From the NCBI GenBank assembly GCA_046330135.1, contig JAXLTI010000011.1, positions 11,848-75,847 on the forward strand: a stretch of DNA of 64,000 bases. Direction: 5' to 3'. The notes below the pieces were generated by a model. It saw only the letters and a program-made list of their open reading frames with translations. It was not told the DNA's origin and searched no databases. How positions within the stretch are numbered: position 1 is the first letter of the stretch; each line of letters starts with the position of its first letter. This document shows, piece after piece, positions 28,216-51,422 of this stretch. The position numbers were made by a program, and so were the translations under genes. This DNA is from a bacterium. Lineage in GTDB: Bacteria > ARS69.

Positions 28216-28292
<77 letters not shown>

Positions 28293-28325: not shown

Positions 28326-28403
28326 GCGCCCGTAGCTCAGCCAGGATAGAGCGACGGCCTTCTAAGCCGTGGGTCGCAGGTTCGAGTCCTGCCGGGCGCG
28401 CCA
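28326..28403 (+). tRNA. tRNA-Arg(TCT)
   Basis: GCGCCCGTAGCTCAGCCAGGATAGAGCGACGGCCTTCTAAGCCGTGGGTCGCAGGTTCGAGTCCTGCCGGGCGCGCCA. Confidence 0.85.
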
Positions 28404-28437: not shown

Positions 28438-28514
28438 GGTGGGTGTAGCTCAGTCGGTAGAGCACCTGACTGTGGATCAGGGTGCCGTGGGTTCAAGTCC
28501 CATCACCCACCCCA
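28438..28514 (+). tRNA. tRNA-His(GTG), including the extra 5' G(-1). Its 3' 45 nt form attL of the integrated element.
   Basis: GGTGGGTGTAGCTCAGTCGGTAGAGCACCTGACTGTGGATCAGGGTGCCGTGGGTTCAAGTCCCATCACCCACCCCA. Confidence 0.85.
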
Positions 28515-28516
28515 AC
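28470..28516. repeat. attL: 47-bp exact direct repeat (tRNA-His 3' end), identical to 38721..38767
   Basis: CTGTGGATCAGGGTGCCGTGGGTTCAAGTCCCATCACCCACCCCAAC is present at both coordinates. Confidence 0.85.
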
Positions 28517-28663
28517 TTCGACCGTCCGCATCTCCTGCGATCATAGCAGGTTCCGATGACGGGCAGGGGCCACCTGGCGGCCCCCACCGCCCTACGCGAT
28601 CGTTCAAGAGCGGTCGCAAGGGCGGCGCGGCCCAGCGCACTCTCTTCGGGAGGGAACCGCAGC

Positions 28664-29494
28664 ATGTCAAAGACCGCCGCGGTGATGATCGGGCGACGCC
28701 GCTTCAATGCGACGCTGAAGGCGTGGTCTGAGCGCGTTGGGGTAGTGTTCGGCGATCCGCACACTGGATTGGGTCTCTACCAGGTTGACCTCAAGGACCT
28801 CGCAGACGCGATGTGGGAGAGCCTCACCGACAAGCACGCTAGCGTCGACGCACTCTTTCTCGATTTTCTCACCCCATACCACATTTCCGCCTTCCGGGGT
28901 CAGTACCAGAGCGTCGAGAGCCTCGAACGCGGAGAATTGGGCCGCGGGGGCGACGGCATACCGGAGCGCCACCCAGACGCGGCGCTTGCACTCCTGAGTC
29001 CCCGAGCGCAGGCGTGGCTCAAGAAGAACGGCTGGCCGGAGCGAGCCCGTGAGATCTATGCGGAGTGGCAACAGTGGAGCGAGGAACAGCGGGCGCAGCG
29101 GCGAGCCGGCAAGACAGTCGGCCGCGGCGGTCGGCCGATCACGGGAAAGCACGAGATCGGACGGGGACGCCGCCGCGCGATCTACAAGAGGGACCAATAT
29201 GAGTGCGTGTACTGCGGCGTGCGGGTAATTCCAGACTACGAGGCCTCAGGCGAGGACGTGCACGATGTCGCGTCCGTTGACCACGTCGTGCCTGGTGCGA
29301 AGGACGAAGCCAACCTCGTGACGGCGTGCCGGAGCTGCAATTCCGCAAAGAGCAATCGGACCCCCGAGCAGGCGCACATGTACCCTCGGTATGGGCGCTT
29401 CCGCGCCGCGCCTCTCGCGGAAACGACACTTTCCATGGCCGAACCCGTAGGAGGTTCCGACGGCAACGCTGTCCAGGACCCAAAGGGCAACTGA
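28664..29494 (+). CDS. HNH endonuclease domain protein (phage packaging-associated)
   Basis: SD GGGAGGGAA then ATG 28664. C-terminal YECVYCGV...DVASVDHVVPGAKDEANLVTACRSCNSAKSNRT is an HNH motif. Confidence 0.8.
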   Translation: MSKTAAVMIGRRRFNATLKAWSERVGVVFGDPHTGLGLYQVDLKDLADAMWESLTDKHASVDALFLDFLTPYHISAFRGQYQSVESLERGELGRGGDGIPERHPDAALALLSPRAQAWLKKNGWPERAREIYAEWQQWSEEQRAQRRAGKTVGRGGRPITGKHEIGRGRRRAIYKRDQYECVYCGVRVIPDYEASGEDVHDVASVDHVVPGAKDEANLVTACRSCNSAKSNRTPEQAHMYPRYGRFRAAPLAETTLSMAEPVGGSDGNAVQDPKGN

Positions 29495-29496
29495 GG

Positions 29497-30042
29497 TCAC
29501 TTTGCCTTCTTCTTTCGCGCTTGCTTCGCGAGCTGTCTCAAGTAAGGACTCGTGCCCTTTCCCATGTGCCCACAAGCGGTACGTGCGAACACGCCGCGCG
29601 CTTTCGCCAACATCGCGTGGTCGTCGAGCACATCTGAAGAGAAATAGACACTGAGACTCTCCCGAGGTTCAAGCCGTCGCGGGAGTCTGCCTCGATCTTC
29701 CATGATCGGGTTCACCAAGAACGCGGCCGAGGCGTCTTTCGTCCCCTTGAGTAGAATCCCTGCGCCGCTGATCGTGACCGGGAATGTGCTGCGATTCACG
29801 ATGTCGATGCAGAGGGTCTCGTTACCGCCAAAGAATGAACCGCCCACGGAGAAGGCGTACTTGGGAGTCACCTTCAGCTTTACCCGATCCTGGTTGAAGG
29901 CGCGCCACGTGTTCATCACACCGAGGAACGCGCCAACCGCAGCGATGGCCAGCGTGATGATGTCGAGCGCTGTCACGCTGGGCGGGCTTGTCGCCTGCGT
30001 TGGCACCAGCACCAGCGGCTGTACATCGTCGATCCTTAGCAA
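29497..30042 (-). CDS. Hypothetical membrane protein (single N-terminal TM helix) within the island
   Basis: TM segment ALDIITLAIAAVGAFLGVM. No family recognised. Ends in a K-rich tail. Confidence 0.5.
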   Translation of the reverse strand: MLRIDDVQPLVLVPTQATSPPSVTALDIITLAIAAVGAFLGVMNTWRAFNQDRVKLKVTPKYAFSVGGSFFGGNETLCIDIVNRSTFPVTISGAGILLKGTKDASAAFLVNPIMEDRGRLPRRLEPRESLSVYFSSDVLDDHAMLAKARGVFARTACGHMGKGTSPYLRQLAKQARKKKAK

Positions 30043-30115
30043 GGAGGCATCCTCCGGAGAGGCCTAGGACCCCGCGCAACTATGAAGGCGAGATTTAGTC
30101 CAGCGCCGCCTTCCG

Positions 30116-30601
30116 TCAACCCTCAGTCGCTCCATCGCGGTAGCCATCGTCCCGTCCCGCGAGGTACGCCGCTTCGATCCGCGCCCGCTCGACCGAACCG
30201 GTCCTGTCGAGCGAGCTGGCCCTCCGCTCGAGCGCCGCGTCCCAGTCCTTGAGTTCCTCCAGCGTCTGCCGCGACAGCTTCATCGCCCGGTCGTCGACGA
30301 TCCACCGCAGGTAGGCGTTGCGCTGCGCGTCGTCGACGCCCGGCGGCCAGCCCTCGGGGCAAGCGACGCGCTCCGCCTCGAGCCGGCACTTGTCCGGGCG
30401 GCGCTCCCACCAGCAGACCTCTCGCGCGACTTCGACGATGCCCGGCGACTTCGAAAGCTGCGCGCGGTGCGCGGCGATCTCGCCGAGCGTCCGAGCCTGA
30501 GCGCAGCGCAGCACGAGGAGGTCCGAGGGCGGCTCGTCGGGCGCGGCGATGGGCGGCGCGTCCGCGGCGCGCGCCTTCTTGAACAACTCAAGGAAGTTCA
30601 C
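30116..30601 (-). CDS. Hypothetical protein (island cargo)
   Basis: 161-aa ORF. Stop/start overlaps the upstream gene (ATGA-type coupling at 30598-30601). Confidence 0.45.
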   Translation of the reverse strand: MNFLELFKKARAADAPPIAAPDEPPSDLLVLRCAQARTLGEIAAHRAQLSKSPGIVEVAREVCWWERRPDKCRLEAERVACPEGWPPGVDDAQRNAYLRWIVDDRAMKLSRQTLEELKDWDAALERRASSLDRTGSVERARIEAAYLAGRDDGYRDGATEG

Positions 30602-31365
30602 GCCGCCGCTCCCTTCCCCTCGGCAAGCGCCTTCGCCGTCGTGCTGGCGCGTGCCGCCGCGGAATCGCGCAGGCTCGCCATGACCTCGGTGTAGCGGGCC
30701 ACGAGCGTCGAGCCGCCGAACGCGACGCGCTCAATGACCTTTTCCACGCTCCGAAGCTGCTGGTACTCGTCGGGCGCCCACGCGGACGCGGCGCGCTCGC
30801 GGAGGACCTCGAGCTGCTCGGCCGTGAGTCCGGAGAGGTACGCGGGCCCGCCGTGGATGACGGCCGCGACGGTGGCGCGGTCCTTCGACTCGATCGCCGC
30901 GTCGACGAAGCGTACGCGCTCCGACGCCTTGAGCGCCTTGACGTAGCCGCGGACCTCCGCGCCCTGCGCGATGCCGACGGGCGTCTTGTGCTCGGGCAGC
31001 GAGAGCGCTTCGTTCACGCGTGCGGCGAGCGCGTCCCGAACGCGCGCCAGTTCCGCGGAGCGGCGGTCGATCGCGGACGTGGCGCGGGCGAGCGCCGCGT
31101 CGGCGGACTTCACGAACGCGTCGTTCCGCTCGCGCACCGGGAGGACGCGGCCGTTGCGCCGCTCGCGCCTCGTGCTGGTAGCTTCGAGTGCGCGCGTCGC
31201 GTCGTTCAGCGCCCCGATGGTCTCGTACGCCGTCGTGAGCGCTTCGCGCGCGGCGGCGATCGCCTGCTTGCCGAGCGGCCGGTCGTCGCGCTCGAGCACG
31301 GGCGCGTCGCCGGCGAGCGCCTCGGGATGCAGGGAGGGGCTGATGTCGGTTCGAATCGGGATCAC
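30598..31365 (-). CDS. Hypothetical coiled-coil protein
   Basis: GTG start at 31365 is preceded (on the minus strand) by AAGGAGG with 7-nt spacing. Ala/Arg-rich coiled-coil sequence. No domain recognised. Confidence 0.5.
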   Translation of the reverse strand: MIPIRTDISPSLHPEALAGDAPVLERDDRPLGKQAIAAAREALTTAYETIGALNDATRALEATSTRRERRNGRVLPVRERNDAFVKSADAALARATSAIDRRSAELARVRDALAARVNEALSLPEHKTPVGIAQGAEVRGYVKALKASERVRFVDAAIESKDRATVAAVIHGGPAYLSGLTAEQLEVLRERAASAWAPDEYQQLRSVEKVIERVAFGGSTLVARYTEVMASLRDSAAARASTTAKALAEGKGAAA

Positions 31366-31388
31366 GTCTTGCCTCCTTGGTTGGTGGG

Positions 31389-32753
31389 TCAGTACATGCC
31401 GACCGCGCGGCCGTTGGAGAACGCGCGGTTCGAATGGGCGTACATGCAGGCGTAGCGCGCCGCGTCGGCGCCGTGGTCGCAGCCGGAGGTGTCGCAGTCC
31501 TCCGGCCGGTGAGGGTCGCGAGAGATGAAGGGCACGGTCGACCAGAAGTAGCGGCACCTCGCGGTCGCGTAGAGGCCGGGTCGGCCGTTCTTCTCCTTCG
31601 CGTTGTGGAGCAGCTCGCGCATCTTCGCCCAGCCGGCGACGCGCTCCTTACGCGGCCGCACGAGCGCGAGCCCGTGCTCGCGGAGGATGCTCAAAAGGGT
31701 GTCGGTGAGGCCGGCCGCGTCGTCGCAGCAGCCCCTCGGGTGCACGCCCCATGCCGCGCATCGCTCCTTCACGGCCTCCGCGATCTTCGACGGCGGCCAG
31801 TGCAGGCCGACGCTCGGGTCGTCGTGGCTCGCGCTCGCGACCTCGTCGAGCAGGACGAGCGAGTCCTTCGCGAACCCGCCGACGTCGCCGGGCGCGCGGA
31901 GCACGACGTAGAAGACGCTCGGCGCCGCGCTGCCGTAGTCGCCGGCGACGAACGGCGCCCACCCACGGTCGACCGCGTGCGGCCACGCGGCGGGCAGCAT
32001 GTGCACGCGCTCGTCGAGGCAGTCCGCGAAGAACGCTCCGGCGCGGACGTTCCAGTCGCCCTTCTCCCACGCGCGCAGCAGCTCGGCGTCGTTCCCGCAC
32101 GCCGCCGCGAGCTGGCGCAGGTACGCCTCGCGGTCGACGTGCGCGTTGTCGTCGAGCGTGGACGGCGCGTAGATCCACGTCTCCCCGTCCACGTCGAAGG
32201 GCTCGAACGCGGGCGCGCGCGACACGTAGAGGCGGTGGAGGACCGTGTGGAGCGGACCGCCCGGGTTCGCGGAGACGATCGTCGGAGTGGGTTGGCCGTC
32301 CGGGGCGCGGAGGTTCGACTTGACCATCATCGCGCGCCGGAACTGCGCGGGGTTCAACGTGCCGGCGTCGTCGATCACCAGCATGGAGAACGTTCGGCCC
32401 TGGTACTTCGCGTACGCCGCCGGGTTCGACATCTCGCCGAGTTCGACGGTCGCGCCCGAGGGGAGCCGGAAGATTCGCTCCGCGCGGTTGTAGCGCGTGC
32501 CGGGGTAGATGCTCGACAACGTCCGCTCGAGTTCGTCGCCCATCTCGGTCGTCGCCTTGAACGTCGTGCGGATGACGAGCACGCGCGCGCGGGCTTGGTA
32601 CTGCTCCACGTGGCGGAGGATGAGGAGCTGCTCGGCCGTCGTCTTGCCGCCGCCGCGCCCGCCGCCCAGGAACTTGTTGACGGTCTCGCCGCTCGCGCCG
32701 CGCTCGGGCAGCGAGAGGACGACGTGCTGCCAGGGGGTCGGCGAGGGGATCAC
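31389..32753 (-). CDS. Phage terminase large subunit
   Basis: N-terminal Walker A GGGRGGGKTT. ATPase plus C-terminal RNase H-like nuclease layout (…VIDDAG…, acidic residues in the C-terminal half). 454 aa. Confidence 0.8.
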   Translation of the reverse strand: MIPSPTPWQHVVLSLPERGASGETVNKFLGGGRGGGKTTAEQLLILRHVEQYQARARVLVIRTTFKATTEMGDELERTLSSIYPGTRYNRAERIFRLPSGATVELGEMSNPAAYAKYQGRTFSMLVIDDAGTLNPAQFRRAMMVKSNLRAPDGQPTPTIVSANPGGPLHTVLHRLYVSRAPAFEPFDVDGETWIYAPSTLDDNAHVDREAYLRQLAAACGNDAELLRAWEKGDWNVRAGAFFADCLDERVHMLPAAWPHAVDRGWAPFVAGDYGSAAPSVFYVVLRAPGDVGGFAKDSLVLLDEVASASHDDPSVGLHWPPSKIAEAVKERCAAWGVHPRGCCDDAAGLTDTLLSILREHGLALVRPRKERVAGWAKMRELLHNAKEKNGRPGLYATARCRYFWSTVPFISRDPHRPEDCDTSGCDHGADAARYACMYAHSNRAFSNGRAVGMY

Positions 32754-33235
32754 TCACGCACCTCGCCTTCGCCTTCCTCGACGCGGTAGCTCGCGCTCAC
32801 GCGCCGGCGCATGTAGTCGTCGAACTCCAGCGCCGCCGGGAGAGTGATGGAAACGTTCGTGACCGAGCCCGACTCGCGCACCGGCTGGCCTTGGTCCCTC
32901 CAGTGCAGGCGCGTCTTCGCGAGGAAGAGCGCCGACACGCGGCAGCCCTTGCGCGCCCACGACAGCAGCAGGCCCGTCAGCTCGTCGGACAGCCGGCCGT
33001 GCCCTACCTCTAGCGCGGTCGCCACGCGGGGGTCCTCGCGCTTCGCGCGGCGGAAGGTCTTCGGCGAGAGGCCGAGCGCGGCCGCGATCGACGTCTCCGC
33101 GCGGCCGCCCGCGGCGAGCTGCTCGATGAGCGCGACGCCCGCGTCGAGCACGACGACCTCGCGCCCCTTGCCGCCCTGGACGGCGTGGCTGCGCTCGACG
33201 AGCGCGGGAAGTGCGGGATTCGCGTCCTCAGCCAT
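32750..33235 (-). CDS. Putative terminase small subunit / HTH DNA-binding protein
   Basis: Immediately upstream of TerL and overlapping it. HTH-like AALGLSPKTFRRAKRED. 161 aa. Confidence 0.5.
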   Translation of the reverse strand: MAEDANPALPALVERSHAVQGGKGREVVVLDAGVALIEQLAAGGRAETSIAAALGLSPKTFRRAKREDPRVATALEVGHGRLSDELTGLLLSWARKGCRVSALFLAKTRLHWRDQGQPVRESGSVTNVSITLPAALEFDDYMRRRVSASYRVEEGEGEVRE

Positions 33236-33422
33236 CGCGCCTCCCCGTCGCCGCCGGGGGCCTCTTGCGAGCCGTCTGGATGCCCTCTCGGATCGCGGCG
33301 TTCACGATCCGCGGCAGGTGGGCCCGGATGCGCGCGCGCAGCTCGGCGTCGCCCACCTCGTCGAGGTCGCGGTCCAGCTCGAGGAGGAACTGGTCCACGA
33401 GCGCGCGCGGAAGCTGGCTCAT
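33228..33422 (-). CDS. Small hypothetical protein (64 aa)
   Basis: Internal ATG of ORF 33228..33530, coupled to the upstream ORF stop. Confidence 0.3.
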   Translation of the reverse strand: MSQLPRALVDQFLLELDRDLDEVGDAELRARIRAHLPRIVNAAIREGIQTARKRPPAATGRRDG

Positions 33423-33730
33423 CGGGGGCCCTCGTCGCGCGCGGCCGCGACGGCTCGCCGCACCGCATCCCTCATGGTGCCGAGGTCGTCGGGGGGAACC
33501 CAGCGCCGCAGGAGCTTGTCCACGCGCCACAGCGCGGGCGTCTCCCGCAGGGGCGGCCCGTCGGCGAGGGCCGGGAGGGACAACTCGGCCTCGATCTGCT
33601 CGCGCTCGTCCTCCTGGATCGCCTCGACCATCGCCGCGGGCACGTCCACGAAGAACTCGGAGGTCGTCGGGTTCGCGCGGATCGCGTCTACGACCGCCGA
33701 TGGAACCAGCACTGCGAATTCACTGCGCAC
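33419..33730 (-). CDS. Small hypothetical protein (103 aa)
   Basis: Acidic small ORF in the gene-dense leftward operon. No similarity recognised. Confidence 0.35.
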   Translation of the reverse strand: MRSEFAVLVPSAVVDAIRANPTTSEFFVDVPAAMVEAIQEDEREQIEAELSLPALADGPPLRETPALWRVDKLLRRWVPPDDLGTMRDAVRRAVAAARDEGPR

Positions 33731-34204
33731 GGAGCCTCCCTTGGCACCGCCCTACGCGGCGCCGGGGTTGGGGTTGAGTGCCGCCTGACGGCGATTCCTT
33801 GGCCGCCCGTCGCGCCCCTTGGCGCTCGGGCCCCTGACGAGTAGTTCCCGGCCCTGCGCGCGGGCGCTCGGTGCGCTGCGCGCGCCCTCCGGCAGGAGTC
33901 GGAGGTGGGCCGGGGCTTTTTCGCGTGGGCGAGAGGGACGCGATCGCGTTACTTTGACCGCACCACCGTCAAATTCATCCTCGGCCAAAAGCGGTCTCGG
34001 TGGGCCGCCTGAACTCGGACGCCGCGGGCACGGCGCTTCGACTCTCCGAAGGGAGACCGGGGCGATGCGCTCGTTCTTTCGTCGCGAGCTGCGCCACCAT
34101 TGGCGGTTCTGGTTGATGGTGTCCTTGGCCACCGCCAGCCTGATCGTGCAGGCGACACACAAGTGACGGGCGGGCTCCCGGACGCGCACCGGGGGCCCGT
34201 ACTT

Positions 34205-34321
34205 CTTTCTGGTGTTCAAGGTGTTCAAGGTCTCTCTCCTTCTTACCTCTACCTCTTCCTCTATCCCTCCACCGCCCGGCGTTCGCTCAGGAGTACAAGA
34301 GACCTTGAACACCCTGAACAG
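34205..34321. repeat. Imperfect ~24-bp inverted repeat (GTGTTCAAGGTGTTCAAGGTCTCT / AGAGACCTTGAACACCCTGAACAG) flanking a ~60-nt CT-rich spacer. Candidate replication origin or regulatory element of the island.
   Basis: Read directly. Tandem GTGTTCAAG ×2 in the left arm. Pyrimidine tract CCTTCTTACCTCTACCTCTTCCTCTATCCCTCC. Lies in a ~600-bp non-coding gap next to the primase-helicase stop. Confidence 0.5.
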
Positions 34322-34328
34322 TTGACCC

Positions 34329-36530
34329 TCAATACGGGAGGTCATCGACCACCTCCCGAAGCCTGATTCCGTCGTAGCGCCACTCGCGCGCCCCGCCCCC
34401 GCCCGTGCGGTTCACGGCGCGCACGCCCCGCACCGCCGCGATGAGGTCGCGCCCGAAGACCGCCGCGGAGCGAGGGTGTTCGCCGACTTCCTCGCACCAC
34501 GTCCGGTACGCGCGGTACACGTCGCGCTTCGGAGCGTCGAATGCCCCGAGTTCGCACCGCTCGTCGACGAACACGCGCACCGGCGAGCCGAGGCGCTCTA
34601 GCGCCGCGACGGCGTCGCGCGCCGCCGCGGGCGGGTCGAAGTGGCCGCGCTCGTTCAGCCGGCGCCACCCCTCGATCGCCCACAAGAGGATCCCCGGCAG
34701 TTCCGCGAGCAAGGCGGACGTGAGGCCCGGGTCCTCTCGCCCGAGGAACGACTGCGACAGTTCCAGCGGCACGAACCGGGAGGCGAGCGCCGCGGAGGCG
34801 TCGGCGAGCCGCGGCAGTTCGTTCGTGAGAATCACGAAGCGCACGGCGAGGCGCCCGTGCCACGCGGAGGCGTACTTCCGGTCGACGGTGACCATGTCCT
34901 CGCCCGAAATCCGCAGGAGGTTCTCCGCGATCGCTGCTTGGTCCGTCCGCGAACCGATCCGCGCGTCGGACACGGTCGCGAGTTGCTTGCCGATGAGCGG
35001 GGCGAGGCCGAACCGGTCGCCGAGGACGTTCAGCGATGGAGCGCACACGTTCGGCCGCCCGACGAGTTCGGCGAGGACGCGCGCGATCGTCCCCTTGCCG
35101 CTGCGTCGCGGACCCACGAGCAGGAAGACCTTCTGCTGCGACGTGTTCGGCACGAGGAGGTACCCGAGGACCTCCTGGAGCGTCTCCTTCTCGCCACCGT
35201 CCGCCGGCCACAGTTCGCCGAGGAATCGGAGCCACCGCTCGGGGCGCGGCGCGCTCGCGTCGTAGTCGAACGACAGCGCGTTGCGCGTGAAGAGTCGCGG
35301 CGTGGACGGGAGGAGCCTGCCTGTTCGGAGGTGGAGGATCCCGTTGCGGCACGCGATCACCTCCGCGGCCGGCGGGTCGCCCGGCTGCGAAGCGAGCCAA
35401 CACGGCGGCTCATGCTTCGCGCCCGGCACGTGCGCCGCGCCCTTAAGCGCGTCAACCACGTCGCCGACGCGCCTCTGCGTCGGCCGGAAGGGCGACGGGG
35501 GCTCGTTCTTGCGGCCGACCTGGAGCGCCGCCGCGAGGAAGTCGTAGAGTTCCGCGCGGATGGTGCGTTCCTCGACCGGCGCGTATGCTGCGCCGTCGTA
35601 CGCGAGCCACTCATCGGTGTGGTGCATGAGCGTGGGCCGGCGCCGCGTCCCATATTCGTGCGCCGACTGGAGTGGGTCCGCGGGGTTGAGGAGGACGCGA
35701 CCCGCGGAATAGCGTCCGTACACTCCGCGGACGACCTCTTCGACGTCTTCCGCGGGCGAAGGCTCGTCCTGCTCGGCGTTCGTGCGCAGGATAGCGTCGA
35801 GCGCGGCCTCCAGCGACAACCCGCGTGCGCGGAAGCCGCCGGCGAGCGACGTGTAGGTGTTGTTGCGCGTCCCCCTCGGGACAACGAGGGGTGAGGAGCC
35901 GTTTGCGCTCGCGGCATCGGGCGAGCCGGCCCCTCCGGCGCTGTCCAGGCGCCTCCCCCGCAGCCCGTCGAGCAACCACTTCGGCGGCGGCGCGATCGCC
36001 GAGCCGAGCGGCACCTGCCACTCGTAGCGCTCGCCGCTGGCGTGCAGGCTCGGAGGGGCGACGACGAACCCGCCGTCGGCGCGGACGTCCAAACCAGGGC
36101 GAACGCCGACGGCGTTGCGCACGTCGGAGTCGGGGCGAACGAACACGAAGTGCCGCCCGCCCGACCCCGTCCGCGACCAGAGCGTCGCCGGCAGCGGGCC
36201 GTGCTCCCTTTCCAGCGCCGCGAGCGACTCGTCCCCGCCGTGCCGTGGGTCGACGTCCAAGACAACCACGCCGGAGGGCCTGCCGGTGGCGACGCCGAGG
36301 TTGGCGCTAGGCCATCGCGCCCACCACTCGCGGATCTTCTGATGGTCGGAAGTAGCGTCCTTCACGCCGCTCTTCGTGCGCGGATGTTTGCCCGCTCGCG
36401 CGCAGTCCGCCTTTCCGCACGTGCACGCGCCGTCGGCGATCGAGTGCAGGGGCAAGACGCTCCAACCCCGAGCGGCGAGGTCGAGTGAAGCGTCGAGCAT
36501 GACTGCGTTGGACGATGCCCTGTCGCTCAT
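34329..36530 (-). CDS. Bifunctional primase-polymerase (prim-pol) fused to a P4/D5-family helicase (replication protein of the element)
   Basis: Prim-pol block ...ANLGVATGRPSGVVVLDVDPRHGG...RTGSGGRHFVFVRP...DVRADGGFVVAPPS. Helicase Walker A LVGPRRSGKGT. ATGA overlap with alpA at 36527-36530. Confidence 0.8.
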   Translation of the reverse strand: MSDRASSNAVMLDASLDLAARGWSVLPLHSIADGACTCGKADCARAGKHPRTKSGVKDATSDHQKIREWWARWPSANLGVATGRPSGVVVLDVDPRHGGDESLAALEREHGPLPATLWSRTGSGGRHFVFVRPDSDVRNAVGVRPGLDVRADGGFVVAPPSLHASGERYEWQVPLGSAIAPPPKWLLDGLRGRRLDSAGGAGSPDAASANGSSPLVVPRGTRNNTYTSLAGGFRARGLSLEAALDAILRTNAEQDEPSPAEDVEEVVRGVYGRYSAGRVLLNPADPLQSAHEYGTRRRPTLMHHTDEWLAYDGAAYAPVEERTIRAELYDFLAAALQVGRKNEPPSPFRPTQRRVGDVVDALKGAAHVPGAKHEPPCWLASQPGDPPAAEVIACRNGILHLRTGRLLPSTPRLFTRNALSFDYDASAPRPERWLRFLGELWPADGGEKETLQEVLGYLLVPNTSQQKVFLLVGPRRSGKGTIARVLAELVGRPNVCAPSLNVLGDRFGLAPLIGKQLATVSDARIGSRTDQAAIAENLLRISGEDMVTVDRKYASAWHGRLAVRFVILTNELPRLADASAALASRFVPLELSQSFLGREDPGLTSALLAELPGILLWAIEGWRRLNERGHFDPPAAARDAVAALERLGSPVRVFVDERCELGAFDAPKRDVYRAYRTWCEEVGEHPRSAAVFGRDLIAAVRGVRAVNRTGGGGAREWRYDGIRLREVVDDLPY

Positions 36531-36790
36531 GCTCCGGTGCCTTCCATGAACTGCCGGAGCGACTTGATCGAGTAGCGCACCAAACGCCCGCACCGCGTCG
36601 GCTGGGGGCCGGTTCCCTTGCGCCTCCACTCTTCGAGGCACCGCGGCGTGACGCCGAGATACTGCGCCGCTTGGTGCGTGTTGAAGTACTCGGGGGGCGA
36701 GACGGCGTTGTCGCGCATGCCCTGGAGAACGAGGCGCGCGACCTCGGCGGCGAGGAGTTGGGTGTCGAGGGTGTTGGGGTCGTTCGTCAC
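36527..36790 (-). CDS. AlpA/excisionase-family HTH protein
   Basis: THQAAQYLGVTPRCLEEWRRKGTGPQPTRCGRLVRYSIKSLRQFM is the Xis/AlpA HTH_17 pattern. Confidence 0.7.
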   Translation of the reverse strand: MTNDPNTLDTQLLAAEVARLVLQGMRDNAVSPPEYFNTHQAAQYLGVTPRCLEEWRRKGTGPQPTRCGRLVRYSIKSLRQFMEGTGA

Positions 36791-37155
36791 GCCGCACCCC
36801 CGCGGTTGGAGGTGCCGACGCCGGAGAGGCCGGCGCCTGCTAGCTCAGGTTCGGCGGGTTCGCCGTCTCCGCCGTCTCCGCTCGACTCGTCGCCCGACTC
36901 GCCGTCGGCACTCCGTTCGGGCACGGCCGGTGCGTCGAGGACCGCGACCGGCGCCGAGTTCGCGACGGAGGCGCGGAGCGGATACCGCTCACGATGGAGC
37001 GCGCGCGCGAACCGCGCGGTCTCCTGGTCGCTCAAGTGGTTCCAGTAGCGGGTTTCTTGGACTCGGCGGGAGAGTGACACCCCGGCGAAGCTCTCGGTTC
37101 CTGCGCCTGCGGCGGCCCCGAAGTCGGGAATCGGGGGTTGCGGTCGGTGCTTCAA
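36787..37155 (-). CDS. Hypothetical acidic protein
   Basis: 122-aa ORF between the integrase and alpA, coupled to alpA. No domain recognised. Confidence 0.35.
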   Translation of the reverse strand: MKHRPQPPIPDFGAAAGAGTESFAGVSLSRRVQETRYWNHLSDQETARFARALHRERYPLRASVANSAPVAVLDAPAVPERSADGESGDESSGDGGDGEPAEPELAGAGLSGVGTSNRGGAA

Positions 37156-37268
37156 CTTCGCTTTCCTCCCAGTGGGTCAGGGTCCGGGAACGAAGCAACA
37201 AGAATACCACGCGGCAAGTGCAATTGTCAACCGAACCACGTAACACTGGAGCCCGCTTGGCGCGAGGG

Positions 37269-38540
37269 TCACGCTCCGTTCGTGAGCAACTCGACCATCC
37301 GCTTCGAAATCCGCTCCTGGCACTCGACGAGGTGGCCGAGGATCGCCGCCGGGTCGAGGTAGACGTCGTGCACCTCAGAACTCGCGTGGTTCAGGAGGAC
37401 GCGGCGGTCGTCCGGCCCCACGCCCGCAGCTTGCGCCACCCCGCGCCACGTCTTCCTGAGTTCGACGCCGAAGTGGAAGCGCGCGTCTTCGGGTCGCCGC
37501 TGCCTCTGTTGCGTGTTCCTGATGTGCCCCCGCGGCGATCTGCCGGGGAAGATCCACGTGCGCGCCTTGTCTGGGTACGCGATGCGTCCGGCCTCTTTCG
37601 CGCGTGCGAGGCACTCAAGCATCGGAGTCGAGAGCGCCAGGTCGAAGGCGCGCCGGGGGCCGCCCTTCGGATCCGGGAAGTGGAGCACGCGTCGCGACTC
37701 GTCGAGGTGCTCCCAGCGCGCGCGCTTGAGCGCGTCGGGGCGCGAGCCCGAGAGGAGCTGGAAGAGGTAGAACTCGCGGCGCACGGGATTCGGCAGGGCT
37801 TGGAGTTGCGCGTACCAGCGCGGGAATTCCTCCGGCCTCATCGCGCGCTTCTTCCCCTGGCGCTTCACGAAGTCGAGCGCGGTCGTCGGCTCCTGCGGCA
37901 GGTGCTCGCCCCCGTCCATCTTCCGGCGCGCGAACCGGTAGACGGCGCGGAAGTAGCGGAAGCAGTTGTCCGCCGCGACGGGTCCGCTCGTCTTCACCAT
38001 CTGCTCGTGCCGGTCGGCGACGCGCTCCTTGCCGATCGAGGCGAGCGGCAGGTCGAGCCACGCCGCGAGGTGCTTCTCGATGTCGTGCTGCATCGCTTCG
38101 ACCGTCCGTGGGCTGCGCTCGCGGCGCTCCACCTTGGGCTCGAGGTGAGAGGTGAGGTAGCGCTCCCACGCGGTCCGGAGCGTAATGACGCCGTTGCGCG
38201 CGTTGGCCGCGCCGTTGCCGTTGCTCGAGCTGCCGTTGGTCGCCGCGAGCCTCGCCGCCATTGGCTCCCCGAGCCACGCGCGCGCCTGCTGGCGCGCGTC
38301 GCGGCACGACAGCGCGTCGACTCGCCCGAACGTCTTGCGCTCGGTCCGAACGCGCTCCTTGCCGTCGCGCACGTCGCGCTGCGCCGACCAGGTCTTCGCG
38401 GTCTTCCCGACCACCAGCCGGAAGCCCGGGAGTTCCGTGTCGCGAACGACGTGTTGTCCTTGGAGCGTGAATTCGAGCTTGCGTGCCAGTGCGTCGGTGA
38501 GCTTAGCTCGCTTGGGCCACTCGACCGCGCTAGTCAGCAT
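37269..38540 (-). CDS. int: Tyrosine-type integrase (P4-like)
   Basis: N-terminal LTDALARKLEF...PGFRLVVGKTAKTWS arm-binding-like region. Core and catalytic domain (…ALRHTF…) with R…H..R…Y spacing. The start was moved to the internal ATG 38540. Confidence 0.8.
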   Translation of the reverse strand: MLTSAVEWPKRAKLTDALARKLEFTLQGQHVVRDTELPGFRLVVGKTAKTWSAQRDVRDGKERVRTERKTFGRVDALSCRDARQQARAWLGEPMAARLAATNGSSSNGNGAANARNGVITLRTAWERYLTSHLEPKVERRERSPRTVEAMQHDIEKHLAAWLDLPLASIGKERVADRHEQMVKTSGPVAADNCFRYFRAVYRFARRKMDGGEHLPQEPTTALDFVKRQGKKRAMRPEEFPRWYAQLQALPNPVRREFYLFQLLSGSRPDALKRARWEHLDESRRVLHFPDPKGGPRRAFDLALSTPMLECLARAKEAGRIAYPDKARTWIFPGRSPRGHIRNTQQRQRRPEDARFHFGVELRKTWRGVAQAAGVGPDDRRVLLNHASSEVHDVYLDPAAILGHLVECQERISKRMVELLTNGA

Positions 38541-38720
38541 GACGACCTCCCTCAAGGCGTAGGGCGACGTAGGGCGGCGAACTTGCGCCCGCGGTGGGGG
38601 CTGGTCAGAGATTCGGTCCCACACCCCGGGGCACTTGAGCCGCACTAAGCCGCGGGCTCTCTTGCAGATGCGGGGGTCGGTGGGAAGTGGTGTAAGCCAC
38701 GTGGGAGCAGTGGCTTGGAC

Positions 38721-38767
38721 CTGTGGATCAGGGTGCCGTGGGTTCAAGTCCCATCACCCACCCCAAC
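38721..38767. repeat. attR: second copy of the 47-bp tRNA-His 3' segment
   Basis: Exact match to 28470..28516. Confidence 0.85.
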
Positions 38768-38816: not shown

Positions 38817-38892
<76 letters not shown>

Positions 38893-40134: not shown

Positions 40135-40486
40135 GGGGGCGAAAGGTCTCGACGGGGAAACACGAGCCGACGATTGCGTGCCGAGGCGCCCAGGCCTCGA
40201 TAAAAATGGGCAAACGTACAACTGCCGACTACGAGTTGGCTCTGGCCGCTTAGCGCGACCACGGTGGCTCCTTCAAGGCCTGCGGGGGGGGATGCCACCG
40301 CCGATTAACGCAGGATCGCTGCTCCCCGGCGTCTCGGCAGGGAGCGGCTAAACTTCACCGGGACTGGTTGCCTCGGGATCCCACCCGTCGGAGCTCGAGG
40401 GAACGAGATTCGTAGGCGGGGAGCGCACGGATGAGTCGTCGGTGAGGGTTCTTCGGACGTGGGTTCGATTCCCACCGCCTCCACCA
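40135..40486 (+). ncRNA. ssrA: tmRNA (ssrA)
   Basis: 5' GGGGGCGAAAGGTCTCGACGGGG. tRNA-like 3' end GGACGTGGGTTCGATTCCCACCGCCTCCACCA. The internal frame GGC AAA CGT ACA ACT GCC GAC TAC GAG TTG GCT CTG GCC GCT TAG gives the tag GKRTTADYELALAA*. Pseudoknot-rich middle region. Confidence 0.85.
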
Positions 40487-40492: not shown

Positions 40493-40521
40493 GGGCCCGT
40501 AAGTGACGTACTTGCGGGCCC
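40493..40521 (+). terminator. Hairpin immediately 3' of the tmRNA (GGGCCCGTAAGT-loop-ACTTGCGGGCCC)
   Basis: 12-bp stem with 1 mismatch and a 5-nt loop. The downstream tract is T-poor, so a rho-independent function is uncertain. Confidence 0.4.
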
Positions 40522-40783
40522 TTACACGTTCGGACGATTTCGGCGAAAAGGCCGTCTCCAGAATATCTCCACTCTTCTAGGCGATTTGCCGCGGGCCCCT
40601 CGCCTGGCGGACGGCCTGGAGCTGGTCTAGAGACCGTTTCCCCTGCGCCGGATCGCTCACGCTGCGCACCGAACCCACGTCCTGACGGGGCTAGGTTCCG
40701 GAGTCCAGAGCCAGGTATCATGAGAAGCGTCAGCGCGGAGGTTGTCGATCTGCCGCATCGACCTGCTCGTTAACGGGACGGCC

Positions 40784-42067
40784 ATGAAGGGCATTCTGGT
40801 TGGATTCGCCGCGGTCCTCATGGTGCAGATGCCTGCACGGGGAGCGGTGCTGCACGTTCCCGAGGAGTATCTGACCGTCTTGAAGGCGGTGGACGTCGCC
40901 GTCGCTGGAGACTCGGTTCTCGTCGGCCCCGGGATCTGGAACGCTACTGAAGCCCGTACGGTTCTCGTCTTCGGCACCCTGCAGACCGTCCAGAGCGCCA
41001 TGTACCTCAAGCCCGGCGTGACCGTGATCGGTGTGGCCGGCGCGGCGACTACCGTCCTGGATGGAGGCCAGCCGACGTTGTACCCGGTCTGTACGATCGA
41101 GGACGGGCTGCCTGGCGCGGTGGCGGCGCACGTGGTCGGCTTGACCGTCACGGGTGGTGGCAGCGGAGTGGCGGTCTCGGAAAGCCCCTTGGAACTCGTC
41201 GACTGTCAGATCACGGGCAACCACGACTACGGGGTCCTGGCAAGCAAGGCTGCGGTGACCCTGACGCGCTGCGTCGTGTCGAACAACCAGCTGAGTGGGG
41301 CGGGCGACGGCGGTGTGGATGGGCACGACATCGATCTGACGTGCACGGGCTGTACGTTCGCACAGAACATCCTTGGGCTCCGCGTAGAGACGGTCGAACA
41401 CCTGCCGATGACTGTGGTCCTTCGGGATTGCGTCTTTCGCGATCACAGCCTTCGGGGCGCGGTCGTTACAGACGTGGCGTCGGTGGATATCGAGCGCTGC
41501 ACGTTCTTGCGGAACTGTGTGGCGGGAGGGACGAACGGGTTGGGCGGCGGGCTCTGGCTCTTTCGCTGCTCGGGCAATCTGCGCTTCTGTACGTTCGCGT
41601 ATGACAGCGCGGGGAGCGGGGGGGGCGCCGCAGCGTCCCTCTCATATGTGCACGTGGAGAGCAACACGTTCTTCGGGTGTCATGCAGGAATACTTGCGGC
41701 AGCCCTGTGCGTAGATGGAACGGACGTCGGGACGAACCACAACATCTTCGCAAGCTCGACGGGCCGACGCGGGGCGGTGAGTGGACTGATTCGGAATCCC
41801 CAGACGGGGTGCAATCTGTTCTGGAACAACGTCGACGGGGACTACTACGAACACTGGCTCCCACCGCCCACGGACATCCACGCGGATCCCCTCTTCTGCG
41901 ATCCAGTCGCCCTCGACTTCCATCTTCAGGATGCCTCGCCCGCCGCGCCGGCGCACTCCGGCGGCTGCGGCTTGATCGGCGCTTTCGACGTGAACTGCGG
42001 CCCCGTGTCGGCCGGGGGCAGCTTGGAGTCGCGCTCCTGGGGCAGCCTGAAGAGCCTCTACCGGTGA
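40784..42067 (+). CDS. Secreted right-handed beta-helix repeat protein. C-terminal Cys-rich module ends in SWGSLKSLYR.
   Basis: Signal peptide MKGILVGFAAVLMVQMPARG. N-terminus VLHVPEEYLTVLKAV is paralogous to the next gene. PbH1-like repeats. Confidence 0.75.
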   Translation: MKGILVGFAAVLMVQMPARGAVLHVPEEYLTVLKAVDVAVAGDSVLVGPGIWNATEARTVLVFGTLQTVQSAMYLKPGVTVIGVAGAATTVLDGGQPTLYPVCTIEDGLPGAVAAHVVGLTVTGGGSGVAVSESPLELVDCQITGNHDYGVLASKAAVTLTRCVVSNNQLSGAGDGGVDGHDIDLTCTGCTFAQNILGLRVETVEHLPMTVVLRDCVFRDHSLRGAVVTDVASVDIERCTFLRNCVAGGTNGLGGGLWLFRCSGNLRFCTFAYDSAGSGGGAAASLSYVHVESNTFFGCHAGILAAALCVDGTDVGTNHNIFASSTGRRGAVSGLIRNPQTGCNLFWNNVDGDYYEHWLPPPTDIHADPLFCDPVALDFHLQDASPAAPAHSGGCGLIGAFDVNCGPVSAGGSLESRSWGSLKSLYR

Positions 42068-42072
42068 AGGCC

Positions 42073-43404
42073 ATGCGTCGACGTGCAGCGACCGCCTCGG
42101 CAGCGGTACTCAGCGCGCTGATCGCGTGCCCGGCTGCGGGAGTCACGCGGCATGTGCCGGCGGAGTATGCGACGATCAACGCGGCGCTGAGTGCATCGAC
42201 GTCGGGCGACAGCGTTCTGGTGGCCCCCGGCACGTATTCGCAGTACGAGGTGCGGGTACTGCATGGCGACGTCAGCTTCACCGCGAGCTCGGTGGCCTTC
42301 CTGAAGGCCGGGGTGAGTCTGATCGGCGAGGGAGGCCGTGATGTGACGCGGATCGATCTCGCCGGTCAGGGCGTCGGCTTTGCGGTCCCCGTGCTCGCGT
42401 ACAACCTGGGCCTCGGAACGATCCTTGTTCAGGGCTTCACGGTCACCGGGGCGCCTGTTGGGAGTACCGGGATGTGGAGCCGCTTCATGGACCGGATGGT
42501 CATCCGCGCTTGCCGACTCGCGGATCTCGATGGCGGCACGGCGCAGCCCGGAGGCTTATACAGCGAGACGGTAGCCTTGGAGATCTACGATACGGAGTTT
42601 CGAAACTGCCGGATCGAAGGTGGCCCCTATCGGCAAGCGGCAATCCTTCACGCCGAGGGCGACGCCGTTCTGGACGGGTGCTTGTTCGCCGATTGCGCGG
42701 GACCCGATATCGTGTGGTTGGATGCGCTAGGTCTAGACCCAGCGTTCGGTGCACTAGTGAAGAACTGCGAGTTCCGGAACAATGCCGGTCTTGGGGCGCG
42801 CCTCGGAGAATTCGTTGACCTGACCGTCGAGGACTGCAGGTTCGTCGGCAACCATCCGTCCGCCAACACCAGCGCACTTGTCGTGTTCGGCGGGCAGGGG
42901 GTCGTGGAACCTGGTCCCTATCATATCCGCCGCAACCTCTTTGCAGACAATGAGTCGGCATTGGGTTGGGGCACGATCTACTGGGACCGAGTCGGCGGCG
43001 TGTTTGAGCAGAACACGCTAGTTGGCAACGGGACCAATGGTCTAGTCATGTCCTACTCTGACTGGCAGCACGTGACCGTCCAGAACAACATCTTCTCAAG
43101 CACTGTAGGATCTACCGCCGTGTGGTTCCGCGGTTCAACATCGCCAGTGCCGGTGTCGGCGTGCAATGACTTCTGGGACAATCCGGGCGGGAACATCGCA
43201 GGGTATCCGCCGGGCGCGACGGACATCTTCGTCGATCCGCAGTTCTGCGATGACGCCAACGGAGACTACACGGTCGCGGACACCTCACCCTGCATCCCGC
43301 CGAACTCAGGCGCTTGCGGGCAAGTCGGGGCGCTCGGGCGGGGCTGCACCGGGCTGGCAGTCGATCCTCAGACCTGGGGCCGGCTCAAGGCCGCCTTCCG
43401 CTAG
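42073..43404 (+). CDS. Secreted right-handed beta-helix repeat protein (paralog). C-terminal module ends in TWGRLKAAFR.
   Basis: MRRRAATASAAVLSALIACPAAGVTRHVPAEYATINAAL. Same architecture as the previous gene. The stop at 43404 abuts the integrase remnant. Confidence 0.75.
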   Translation: MRRRAATASAAVLSALIACPAAGVTRHVPAEYATINAALSASTSGDSVLVAPGTYSQYEVRVLHGDVSFTASSVAFLKAGVSLIGEGGRDVTRIDLAGQGVGFAVPVLAYNLGLGTILVQGFTVTGAPVGSTGMWSRFMDRMVIRACRLADLDGGTAQPGGLYSETVALEIYDTEFRNCRIEGGPYRQAAILHAEGDAVLDGCLFADCAGPDIVWLDALGLDPAFGALVKNCEFRNNAGLGARLGEFVDLTVEDCRFVGNHPSANTSALVVFGGQGVVEPGPYHIRRNLFADNESALGWGTIYWDRVGGVFEQNTLVGNGTNGLVMSYSDWQHVTVQNNIFSSTVGSTAVWFRGSTSPVPVSACNDFWDNPGGNIAGYPPGATDIFVDPQFCDDANGDYTVADTSPCIPPNSGACGQVGALGRGCTGLAVDPQTWGRLKAAFR

Positions 43405-51338: not shown

Positions 51339-51422
51339 CGGACCTCCTCTTCACCGAGAGGTGCGCGACGCCCGAGTCGGCCATCTGAGGCGCGAGACGC
51401 CCGGCCAGAACGGCTGGGCGTC

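Follow-up and report, generated by a model that had tools for sequence, protein, structure and literature searches.

A ~10.3-kb element inserted at a tRNA-His gene of this bacterium is probably a PICI-type phage satellite in its integrated state, one that brings a full terminase of its own and would fill the procapsids of a helper phage. The element lies within a 64-kb stretch of DNA (the window), to which all positions refer; no structural prophage was found in this window. Elements of the same kind, ~11 kb long and equipped with TerS and TerL but with neither portal nor tail genes, apparently form a widespread and undescribed family.

A discrete element at tRNA-His

A repeat search of the window returned two exact copies of a 47-nt direct repeat, CTGTGGATCAGGGTGCCGTGGGTTCAAGTCCCATCACCCACCCCAAC, at 28470-28516 and 38721-38767 (the attL and attR cores, 100% identical), which bracket the ~10.3-kb element. 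The probability of an exact 47-mer by chance is negligible (4^-47). Because ARAGORN and Rfam (tRNA, 70.9 bits) place a tRNA-His(gtg) gene at 28439-28514 on the forward strand, the first copy corresponds to the 3′ end of this tRNA, as an earlier note on this DNA had claimed; the element regenerates the 3′ end of its target. These data show a discrete mobile unit, inserted at the tRNA 3′ end by a tyrosine integrase. It sits in a tRNA cluster with the order Pro-Arg-His, element, Lys and then tmRNA.

An independent assembly (Logan, SRR26348421) contains the identical element sequence with identical gene calls and all ORFs intact. Since the 47-nt repeat exceeds the k = 31 of that short-read assembly, attP is indistinguishable there from attL and attR. 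A search for an empty attB site of the tRNA-His element found none.

Integration and replication genes

ORF calls together with Pfam and PHROGs profile matches bear out the gene order that had been proposed: integrase, hypothetical protein, AlpA-type HTH, PrimPol/D5 helicase, inverted repeat, small ORFs, TerS, TerL, a 255-aa protein, a 161-aa protein, a membrane protein and HNH. All of these genes lie on the reverse strand except the last. The P4-type tyrosine integrase (423 aa from MLTSAVEW; 37269-38540) matches phrog_1 (1.4e-29) and Arm-DNA-bind_3 (3.4e-5; at 24.3 bits, under the Pfam cut-off of 27 bits), and its catalytic residues R267, R362, H385 and Y394 are conserved in a 61-member alignment. 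A putative sigma-70-like promoter at 37201-37230 (reverse strand; TTGACA-18-TATTCT with a TG extension) precedes the operon that follows; it is a pattern match from a consensus scan, with one site found and 0.2 expected.

This operon encodes a 122-aa hypothetical protein (36787-37155; no family match), an 87-aa AlpA/excisionase-type HTH regulator (36527-36790; HTH_17 8.2e-8, phrog_66 excisionase/regulator 4.2e-9) whose positional counterpart in relatives matches PF05930 Phage_AlpA, and a 733-aa replicase (34329-36530). The replicase combines PrimPol, PriCT_1, D5_N and DUF5906 (SF3 helicase) domains (Pfam: Prim-Pol 5.2e-48, DUF5906 7.2e-14, D5_N 2.6e-9; phrog_1156 5e-77). Just past the primase gene, a repeat search and direct reading of the sequence revealed an inverted repeat (34213-34320) that is a candidate replication origin. 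Its 23-nt arms (34213-34235 and 34298-34320) are 96% complementary, flank a 62-nt purine-rich spacer and carry two GTGTTCA(A/G)GG iterons each. Perfect inverted repeats of 10-20 nt, differing in sequence, occupy the equivalent position in 12 of 17 relatives.

The packaging operon and P255

Two small ORFs, TerS, TerL, P255 and a 161-aa protein make up a tightly coupled packaging operon. Its first gene is a 103-aa ORF (33419-33730) with no Pfam or PHROG match, followed by a 64-aa ORF (33228-33422) that has a coding-like GC-position pattern, is called in the Logan annotation and has no family match. The TerS-like protein (161 aa; 32750-33235) matches phrog_309 at 7.5e-4, which is weak alone; its gene lies directly upstream of that for TerL with a 4-nt overlap, and 50 of the 51 proteins in this position across the family match phrog_309 TerS (best 2e-20). 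TerL (454 aa; 31389-32753) matches Terminase_6N (1.2e-7), Terminase_3 (1e-4) and phrog_2 (1.3e-19) and carries Walker A (GGRGGGKT), Walker B and the invariant residues D272, D344, D426, H427 and D430. The ATPase and nuclease motifs are kept throughout the family. One Walker-B position holds Asp here as compared to Glu in 24 of 26 relatives, a difference that might lower the activity of this TerL.

P255 (30598-31365) is a conserved, all-helical protein of ~255 aa and the hallmark of the capsid-less variant of these elements; in 25 of the 29 loci of its cluster (c3) it directly follows TerL. An exhaustive HMMER search collected 1575 representatives at E<=1e-3, and the family is clearly under purifying selection at 20-45% identity. 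The AF2 model (pLDDT 86, pTM 0.77) consists entirely of helices in a generic helical-bundle fold, and neither a specific fold or sequence match nor a homolog with known function was detected. One distant homolog without a TerL neighbour adjoins an Abi_2 gene. The 161-aa hypothetical protein (30116-30601) is translationally coupled to P255, its start overlapping the P255 stop by 4 nt; it has no match in Pfam, PHROG or PADLOC and is not conserved among related loci.

A variable cargo end

The remaining two genes form the variable cargo end. A predicted membrane protein (181 aa; 29497-30042) has phrog_17486 (unknown function, 2.3e-4) as its sole profile match and no relatives among 86 related loci. 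The HNH endonuclease (312 aa, or 276 aa from an alternative start at 28664; 28556-29494, forward strand) matches generic HNH models only in Pfam (HNH 7.4e-7), PHROG (HNH families, to 1.4e-14) and PADLOC. It lies on the strand opposite to the rest and has a lower GC3; GC over the stretch is 0.60-0.65. The same slot in relatives holds methyltransferases, GmrSD-HNH, Eco57I-type R-M, AbiJ, AAA_15/21 and DUF4145, a defence-type cargo that resembles the P4 and PICI hotspots.

The pairing of TerL with HNH had been read as a sign of a cos-packaging helper. This does not hold, because the HNH gene belongs to the variable cargo and is no conserved part of the family, with weak matches in only 2 of the 86 related loci. 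TerL is of the Terminase_6N/Terminase_3 type and the closest head module of phage type is arranged in an SPP1-like order (portal, gp7-like protein, scaffold, MCP), a combination that we take to indicate headful rather than cos packaging.

Missing structural genes and a family of relatives

The claim that capsid and portal genes are lacking was upheld by HMM searches of the hypothetical proteins of the element, which gave no structural domain and no capsid or portal match in Pfam or PHROGs. Six-frame HMM and phmmer searches of the element, with MCP, scaffold and portal proteins of related elements and phages as queries, likewise returned nothing (all E >= 0.4). A portal is absent from all 40 repeat-delimited elements that we collected. 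Portal-bearing procapsids are required for TerL-driven packaging.

Searches yielded 522 relatives of TerL from the protein database and 223 from species-representative genomes. Those at 39-62% identity share the int-alpA-primase-TerS-TerL synteny, always at tRNA 3′ ends, and the arrangement, with an optional hypothetical gene after int and with intact ORFs, recurs in dozens of genomes of Alpha-, Beta- and Gammaproteobacteria, Myxococcota, Acidobacteriota and others. Many different tRNA genes serve as insertion sites, with repeats of 25-69 nt. The 40 repeat-delimited elements have a median length of 10.9 kb (IQR 10.2-11.3 kb). Longer cores go with shorter cargos (r = -0.70, p = 0.0017, n = 17, among family members that are not phylogenetically independent and whose NJ tree carries no support values), and total length has an SD of 524 nt as compared to the 941 nt expected were core and cargo independent. 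This recurrent architecture and the size near 11 kb strongly support the earlier description of an organised, capsid-less, tRNA-integrated satellite-like element rather than debris.

Two mutually exclusive variants exist, one with MCP and scaffold (12 elements) and one with P255 (23 elements, the P255 variant including the element studied here). The clade is remote from isolated phages, whose TerL identity reaches at most 30% across 50,697 genomes, and no IMG/VR contig whose TerL has 37% identity or more exceeds 17 kb. One viral contig, L087 (TerL 46% identity), has a phage-type module TerS-TerL-portal-gp7-like-scaffold-MCP. The satellite genes plausibly derive from such a module, which likely marks the helper type.

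Alternative explanations

A considerably less probable alternative is an integrative element that is no satellite and has exapted its terminase, either as a defence island, where TerS/TerL would cut or sequester invading phage concatemers, or to resolve the products of its own replication while spreading by some other means. The defence genes that crowd the cargo region of relatives, the P255 homolog beside Abi_2 and the failure to identify a helper phage all speak for it; satellites commonly interfere with phages, and defence and parasitism are compatible. Against it, the element contains no conjugation or mobilisation genes, both sets of TerL motifs are conserved, and the narrow ~11-kb optimum with its core-cargo compensation fits encapsidation and not a defence island. 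The MCP and scaffold genes beside the same TerS-TerL in sister elements, moreover, make sense only for particle formation.

Decay of a formerly temperate phage, its head and tail genes deleted, into an inert remnant in tRNA-His is largely refuted and very improbable. The phage descent of TerS and TerL, the portal and capsid genes of L087 and the odd Walker-B Asp would suit such a history, but the same genes stand in the same order with intact ORFs in different phyla, their total size is tightly conserved through mutual compensation of core and cargo, the two att repeats match exactly, P255 is under purifying selection and no frame holds capsid or portal pseudogene fragments. Least probable of all is an autonomous minimal virus with P255 or another uncharacterised protein as a novel capsid: several genes do have no known function and P255 is abundant and conserved, but P255 is an all-helical bundle, and the ~12 genes include no portal, HK97-fold or jelly-roll candidate and no lysis or tail genes.

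Comparison with described satellites

The earlier note regarded satellites as known from Proteobacteria and Firmicutes, which is outdated; satellites of Actinobacteria and of marine and other sources have been published (PMC10085698, PMC9618062, PMC10690885). PICIs of Gram-negatives (e.g., EcCICFT073; SatelliteFinder PICI model, PMC10085698) have the same left half of int, alpA-type regulator, primase-replicase and post-replicase origin, followed as here by packaging genes that include one for a TerS-type protein. Site-specific integration with flanking direct repeats, a size of ~10-15 kb, an accessory defence slot and the lack of tail, holin and portal genes are common to the two. PICIs, however, have no TerL and redirect that of the helper via TerS or Rpp, whereas the element has a full TerL, has the novel P255 in place of known capsid-morphogenesis homologs and occurs in hosts far outside the taxa of described PICIs.

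The cfPICIs (Alqurainy et al., bioRxiv 10.1101/2022.09.08.507074; PMC10085698) are the sole described satellites that encode TerL and TerS, often with HNH, and share the int, alpA and primase of the left half. They also encode MCP, protease, portal and head-tail adaptor/connector and borrow only helper tails; the element has none of these genes, and even its MCP-bearing sisters are without portal, protease and connectors. Their median size is 14 kb, as compared to 10.9 kb here. P4, at 11.6 kb almost identical in size to the element, likewise targets a tRNA gene through a P4-type arm-binding integrase, encodes an AlpA/Vis-type regulator together with a large primase-helicase that includes a D5-type domain, and has an accessory hotspot for defence genes. 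Lacking terminase genes, P4 relies on the P2 terminase acting at a cos site, unlike the element with its own TerS and TerL, and homologs of P4 delta and epsilon are absent from the element. The P4 size-determination protein Sid (~244 aa, helical) is near P255 in size and helical content, but comparison of P255 with Sid and Psu shows no relationship in sequence (hhalign probability 0.1). Marine VEIMEs/PICMIs (PMC9618062, PMC10803314) are likewise environmental, tRNA-integrated and free of capsid genes, some with TerS and HNH; unlike the element they are smaller, travel as concatemers in full-size heads and have no reported TerL.

A proposed life cycle for the probable satellite

For a satellite with its own terminase, infection or induction of a helper phage would switch on the alpA-primase operon. 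Integrase and AlpA would excise the element, which would then replicate from the inverted-repeat origin. The element TerS would recognise a site on the element DNA, and TerL would dock on the helper portal and load helper procapsids with this DNA, probably by a headful mechanism; helper tails would complete the particles. In the literature we found no experimentally characterised precedent for a satellite TerL that fits a foreign portal.

P255 would stand in for the scaffold and MCP pair of the sister elements. Given its position and its exclusivity with MCP and scaffold, our guess is that P255 most likely influences the assembly of helper capsids (size redirection) or blocks helper packaging. 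The ~11-kb size would be fixed by what the particle can hold, whether the DNA fills a small capsid or takes up an integral fraction of a full-size head. The element would thus probably depend on a helper, and the family as a whole would most likely ride in helper-phage capsids.

An element integrated at tRNA-His

In the window's tRNA cluster, tRNA-Pro (28216-28292), tRNA-Arg (28326-28403) and tRNA-His (28439-28514) are followed, beyond a gap of 10.2 kb, by tRNA-Lys (38817-38892) and then by the tmRNA gene (40135-40486). A 47-nt sequence that begins within tRNA-His (28470-28516) has an exact second copy at 38721-38767; such a duplication is the hallmark of a tyrosine-integrase element restoring the tRNA 3' end at its insertion site. 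The GC content of the sequence is 69%, and genes were read by frame-specific GC analysis. Genes called independently on a Logan assembly of SRR26348421, identical in sequence, make up the same set, with 11 genes on the minus strand and 1 on the plus strand.

An earlier note had assigned an integrase, an HTH regulator, a replicase, a TerS-like protein, TerL and an HNH protein, and profile searches upheld each of these. The tyrosine integrase (phrog_1, 1.4e-29) retains its catalytic Arg, Arg, His and Tyr; its arm-binding match to Arm-DNA-bind_3 scores 24.3 bits, just under the Pfam cut-off of 27 bits. The excisionase-type regulator beside int matches HTH_17 (8.2e-8) and phrog_66 (4.2e-9), and the gene at this position in relatives matches PF05930, Phage_AlpA. 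The replicase is a 733-aa protein of the arrangement PrimPol-PriCT-D5_N-DUF5906 (Prim-Pol, 5.2e-48). One strong sigma-70-like promoter pattern sits in the gap separating int from the hyp-alpA-primase genes.

Directly downstream of the primase gene is a 23-nt inverted repeat (34213-34235 / 34298-34320), each arm of which consists of two GTGTTCA(A/G)GG units, with a purine-rich spacer between. A perfect inverted repeat with arms of 10-20 nt occupies the same position in 12 of 17 relatives, where the expectation for inverted repeats with 12-nt arms is ~0.005 per locus. The repeats of the relatives differ in sequence, and their arms are often made of tandem units. This pattern fits a candidate iteron-type origin matched to each replicase. 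An ORF of 197 aa that spans the repeat region scores poorly in coding statistics and is unlikely to be a gene.

The absence of capsid and portal genes, also proposed in the earlier note, held when the hypothetical proteins were searched against Pfam and PHROGs. The six-frame translation likewise yielded no capsid, scaffold or portal, with all E-values at least 0.4, both for capsid and scaffold HMMs of the sister elements described below (best E-values 2.1 for the family MCP and 0.73 for the scaffold) and for phmmer searches with four portals from related phages; there is also no unassigned ORF of portal size. Tail, holin, portal and connector genes are absent by Pfam, PHROGs and HMM/phmmer searches. 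The remaining small ORFs have no PHROG or Pfam match to a head-tail adaptor or connector, a search of limited sensitivity at such sizes. A degraded prophage is a very unlikely explanation for this gene content, as neither remnants of structural genes nor pseudogenes were found and the architecture is conserved among genomes.

Terminase genes and the HNH gene

TerL (31389-32753) retains Walker A, Walker B and the acidic nuclease residues. Its Walker-B pair is D-D, versus D-E in 24 of 26 relatives; Asp129 is a conservative change at the position of the catalytic glutamate. The ~155-aa protein encoded upstream of TerL is only a weak match to phrog_309 in the window (7.5e-4); since 50 of 51 family members match this TerS profile at the same position (best 2e-20), it is predicted to be the small terminase. 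The TerL is of the Terminase_6N/Terminase_3 type and the TerS Sf6/SPP1-like, and these, together with SPP1-like head modules, generally go with headful packaging.

The pairing of terminase and HNH genes had been taken in the earlier note to hint at a helper phage of the cos type. This idea is not borne out: the HNH gene is on the opposite strand and stands last in the cargo region, and its lower GC3 weakens the inference further. Its counterparts are weak and occur in only 2 of 86 related loci, and it matches generic HNH models only. The HNH gene is better read as cargo. Assignment to a defence system was rejected, as the PADLOC matches (PtuB and REase HNH) are weak and generic and no partner gene was found.

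A family of elements of constrained size

Relatives of the window's TerL number 522 in a clustered protein database, and strikingly many of them lie on contigs of 10-11.6 kb. These contigs finish in an att repeat, so that contig size corresponds to element length. The order of neighbouring genes is repeated: int, hyp, AlpA, DUF5906 primase, a ~155-aa protein, TerL, a ~250-aa protein, a ~105-aa protein and variable genes. A scan of species representatives (one genome each) returned 223 TerL relatives, and the best 80 of these were analysed. They derive from Alpha-, Beta- and Gammaproteobacteria, Polyangiaceae, Acidobacteriota (Granulicella, Terriglobus and Edaphobacter), Verrucomicrobia, Balneolaceae, Desulfobacteraceae and Geobacter. 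ORFs were called in the relatives, proteins were clustered, and elements were delimited by direct repeats bracketing TerL. This gave 40 delimited elements including that of the window, with repeats of 17-69 nt that nearly all overlap the 3' end of a tRNA (Gly, Arg, Leu, Thr, Asn, Glu, Lys, Val, Met, Ser, Phe, Ala or His).

The median size of the 40 elements is 10.9 kb (IQR 10.2-11.3 kb), with 33 falling within 9.5-12.1 kb. Across 17 elements of the type found in the window, core length (att to the end of the gene for P255, the ~255-aa protein encoded directly after TerL) and cargo length are anticorrelated (r = -0.70, p = 0.0017, a p-value that is optimistic for related sequences), and the spread of total length is about half that expected for independent core and cargo. 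The observed size constraint is of the kind that a fixed capsid capacity predicts.

Several loci hold more than one integrase gene. In L008 (11675-13081), L009 (16189-17844), and L082 and L086 (two adjacent integrases) a second integrase gene lies directly past attR. The extra integrases past attR suggest tandem arrays of different elements at one tRNA. Two family members were also found on separate contigs of a single MAG, in Polyangiaceae (L016 and L017) and in Usitatibacter (L032 and L072).

Two mutually exclusive modules and a cargo slot

Elements whose TerL is 45-62% identical to that of the window carry P255 directly after TerL (window copy 30598-31365, minus strand). Their hosts are mainly Alphaproteobacteria, together with Polyangiaceae and Woeseia. 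Elements at 39-45% TerL identity come from Gamma- and Betaproteobacteria and Acidobacteriota, and most of these have, in place of P255, scaffold and MCP genes just upstream of TerS. The scaffold is a protein of ~185 aa (phrog_206, 4.5e-7), and the major head protein is one of ~333 aa (phrog_247, 1.7e-85; Pfam Gp13-like). Among the 40 delimited elements, P255 or a P255-like protein is present in 23 and the scaffold in 12, with MCP also called in 11 of the latter. The two modules never occur together. A few delimited elements carry other helical proteins of ~250 aa, some of which are remote relatives of P255. No unassigned ORF of portal size is present in any of the 40.

The scaffold/MCP elements form a sister family (loci L026, L034, L039, L041, L043, L050, L053, L055-L059, L062, L067, L071, L073, L082 and L086) of ~10-11.5 kb, integrated at tRNAs and ordered int-alpA-primase-scaffold-MCP-TerS-TerL, with TerL the last gene before attR. 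Portal, protease and connector were not found in these elements from Gamma- and Betaproteobacteria and Acidobacteriota. The sister family is thus capsid-forming yet falls outside the definition of capsid-forming PICIs (cfPICIs), because it lacks these three components.

The large unassigned ORFs scanned in relatives are DNA methyltransferases, a GmrSD-HNH enzyme, an Eco57I-type enzyme, AbiJ and DUF2971. These restriction- and Abi-type proteins mark the cargo end as a slot for defence and restriction-modification genes, like those of P4 and PICIs. Other relatives carry AAA_15/AAA_21 and DUF4145 proteins. The slot in the window is a lower-GC stretch at 28.5-30.1 kb that contains a membrane protein gene and the HNH gene.

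Properties of P255

An exhaustive HMMER search with P255 returned 1575 cluster representatives at E <= 1e-3, of which 528 reach E <= 1e-10; almost all are 240-280 aa long. This exhaustive approach was needed: word-indexed homolog searches yielded only 2 and 5 matches, probably due to the alanine-rich composition of the protein. An IMG/VR scan for P255 gave one contig, of 11.3 kb. One distant member, P0258, lies in an int...TerS-TerL-P255 context. Another distant homolog, P0272 (E 3.7e-26; 7820-nt contig of JGI sample 3300067032), lies among small ORFs near an Abi_2 gene, and the 3.2 kb upstream of it contain no TerL, indicating that the P255 family is not strictly bound to an adjacent terminase.

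The AlphaFold2 model of P255, computed from a four-sequence alignment, is all-helical (pLDDT 86, pTM 0.77) and comprises a long helical hairpin, a group of short helices and one more long helix. Pfam, PHROGs and PADLOC gave nothing specific on function, and Foldseek searches of BFVD and PDB matched generic helical bundles only. A PDB profile match to an SPX helical bundle (E = 4e-4) was judged compositional. P255 is like P4 Sid in size and in the helical character of size-determination scaffolds. This is a resemblance and not homology, as hhalign comparison of the P255 family with P4 Sid and Psu gave a probability of 0.1 and no relationship. Because P255 is linked translationally to TerL, is mutually exclusive with the scaffold-capsid pair and has a Sid-like size and helicity, its most likely role would be to influence either the assembly of helper capsids or the packaging of the helper.

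Probable origin of the terminase and likely helpers

Across 50,697 phage genomes, identity of isolated-phage TerLs to that of the window tops out at 30%. All IMG/VR contigs with a TerL of at least 37% identity are no longer than 17 kb, and contigs of phage size are confined to identities of 34% or less. The window TerL falls inside the P255-type clade of a neighbour-joining tree of 155 TerLs (without support values).

A viral contig, L087 (IMGVR_UViG_3300009983_000017; GC 51%), has a TerL 46% identical to that of the window and adjoins the P255-type clade. Its head module (402-12294) consists of TerS, TerL, portal (phrog_145, 3e-98), an SPP1-gp7/Mu-F-like head morphogenesis protein, scaffold (phrog_206) and MCP (phrog_247). 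The contig is incomplete at both ends and is compatible with both a phage and a cfPICI-like element. A phage module of this type is plausibly the source of the satellite packaging genes, and L087, which may itself be a phage or cfPICI-like, is the best available model for the type of helper phage. Siphoviruses with genomes of 42-63 kb, among them Serratia Eta, Stenotrophomonas AXL3, Pseudoxanthomonas PW916, Sphingomonas MMDA13, Vibrio phages and Pseudomonas Pa-X, have capsid proteins 39-40% identical to that of the MCP-type elements, which puts the elements at about one quarter of the likely helper genome.

Empty site, circular forms and neighbouring regions

Two exact-pattern scans of JGI metagenome contigs (tRNA-His, gap and tRNA-Lys, plus a relaxed version) returned no empty attB, a weak negative since exact matches were required. 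A Logan contig of one repeat period plus 30 nt (L167) was considered as a circular form and rejected: the 47-nt repeat exceeds k = 31, and the integrated form gives the same pattern. Other ~11-kb Logan contigs that end in the att repeat are likewise not evidence of circles.

No helper was found in the window, where the only other phage-like region (47.4-60.3 kb) is without structural genes and has an unrelated TerL (BLASTP E 0.7 between the two). This second TerL-bearing island (47441-60271) lacks capsid genes and encodes an integrase (47441-48547, minus strand), a primase/helicase (54017-56230) and TerL (57454-58899; phrog_38, 5e-95), as well as a Sak4-like ATPase, an SSB, a DNA methyltransferase and a ParB-like nuclease/MTase. 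The island showed neither a tRNA nor clean direct repeats, and no portal or capsid. The next gene encodes a host-like FG-GAP repeat protein, and four repeats spaced by ~180 nt (60611-61229; 62-81% identical) encode FG-GAP-like units inside a 642-aa ORF (60488-62416). Immediately past the tmRNA gene, a stretch of lower GC (40500-43404; 0.63-0.66) contains two adjacent paralogs of ~445 aa with signal-peptide-like N-termini (40742-42067 and 42064-43404). This stretch may be another insertion at ssrA.

Comparison with known satellites

Counterparts of the P4 genes sid, psu and delta are absent from the element, there is no other candidate gene, and the element is for this reason not P4-like. The comparison also covered a P4-type integrase and a large alpha-like primase-helicase: the arm-binding match is sub-threshold, and the primase-helicase matches in its D5_N and PriCT domains only, features that occur in many other elements and are not specific to P4. 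The element shares TerL with cfPICIs and differs in having no MCP, protease/scaffold, portal or head-tail adaptor/connector, which places it outside the cfPICIs. In the literature covered, TerL is otherwise specific to capsid-forming PICIs and Streptomyces satellites, both of which always add capsid, portal and connectors (PMC10085698, PMC10690885).

Four of the five components of the PICI model (SatelliteFinder, PMC10085698) are present, namely int with att repeats, regulator, primase-replicase and TerS, and the components forbidden in PICIs are absent. The capsid-morphogenesis component is missing, with no Pfam or PHROG capsid match on any ORF, no match to the MCP and scaffold HMMs and no known homolog for P255. 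Given the four components present and the forbidden ones absent, the element would work like a PICI and could formally be called one. Full-text literature searches, of incomplete coverage, found no description of a capsid-less satellite that encodes TerL. We therefore regard the element as a new variety of phage satellite.

Discussion

Our best explanation, which we advance with moderate confidence, is a PICI-type phage satellite that brings its own terminase and would fill helper procapsids. A more novel reading, to which we give somewhat less than even odds, is an unrecognised multi-phylum satellite family of ~11 kb with its own TerS-TerL holoenzyme, no portal and two interchangeable head-hijacking modules. 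One module, scaffold plus MCP, would build the element's own shell on a stolen portal; in the other, P255 would remodel or exploit the helper shell. The data themselves establish the architecture, the family, the constrained size and the exclusivity of the modules, and the life cycle under the best explanation is one we infer from anatomy and comparative genomics. Since several cultured hosts carry family members, among them Novosphingobium meiothermophilum SYSU G00007, Altererythrobacter lauratis KCTC 52606, Lutimaribacter pacificus DSM 29620, Chelativorans petroleitrophicus SCAU 2101 and Sphingobium tyrosinilyticum, the prediction is directly testable.

The hijacking logic lies between that of PICIs, which take capsids and the terminase motor, and that of cfPICIs, which take tails only: the motor is brought, and the portal on which it would dock is not. 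If true, a satellite TerL working on a helper portal is a strategy that has not been described in any satellite, and P255 would be a new kind of protein that redirects capsids or interferes with packaging, represented by more than 1,500 public sequence clusters. Confirmation would mean that a TerL gene can no longer be relied on to mark a virus or cfPICI when metagenomes are annotated, would open portal-terminase compatibility to structural study and would tie a very abundant protein family to the manipulation of capsids or packaging. Satellites are major carriers of gene transfer and anti-phage defence, and the families described so far are largely those of enterobacteria, staphylococci, vibrios and a few other groups. 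The element points to a sizeable family hosted by soil, freshwater and marine Alphaproteobacteria, Myxococcota, Acidobacteriota and further groups that have received little study.
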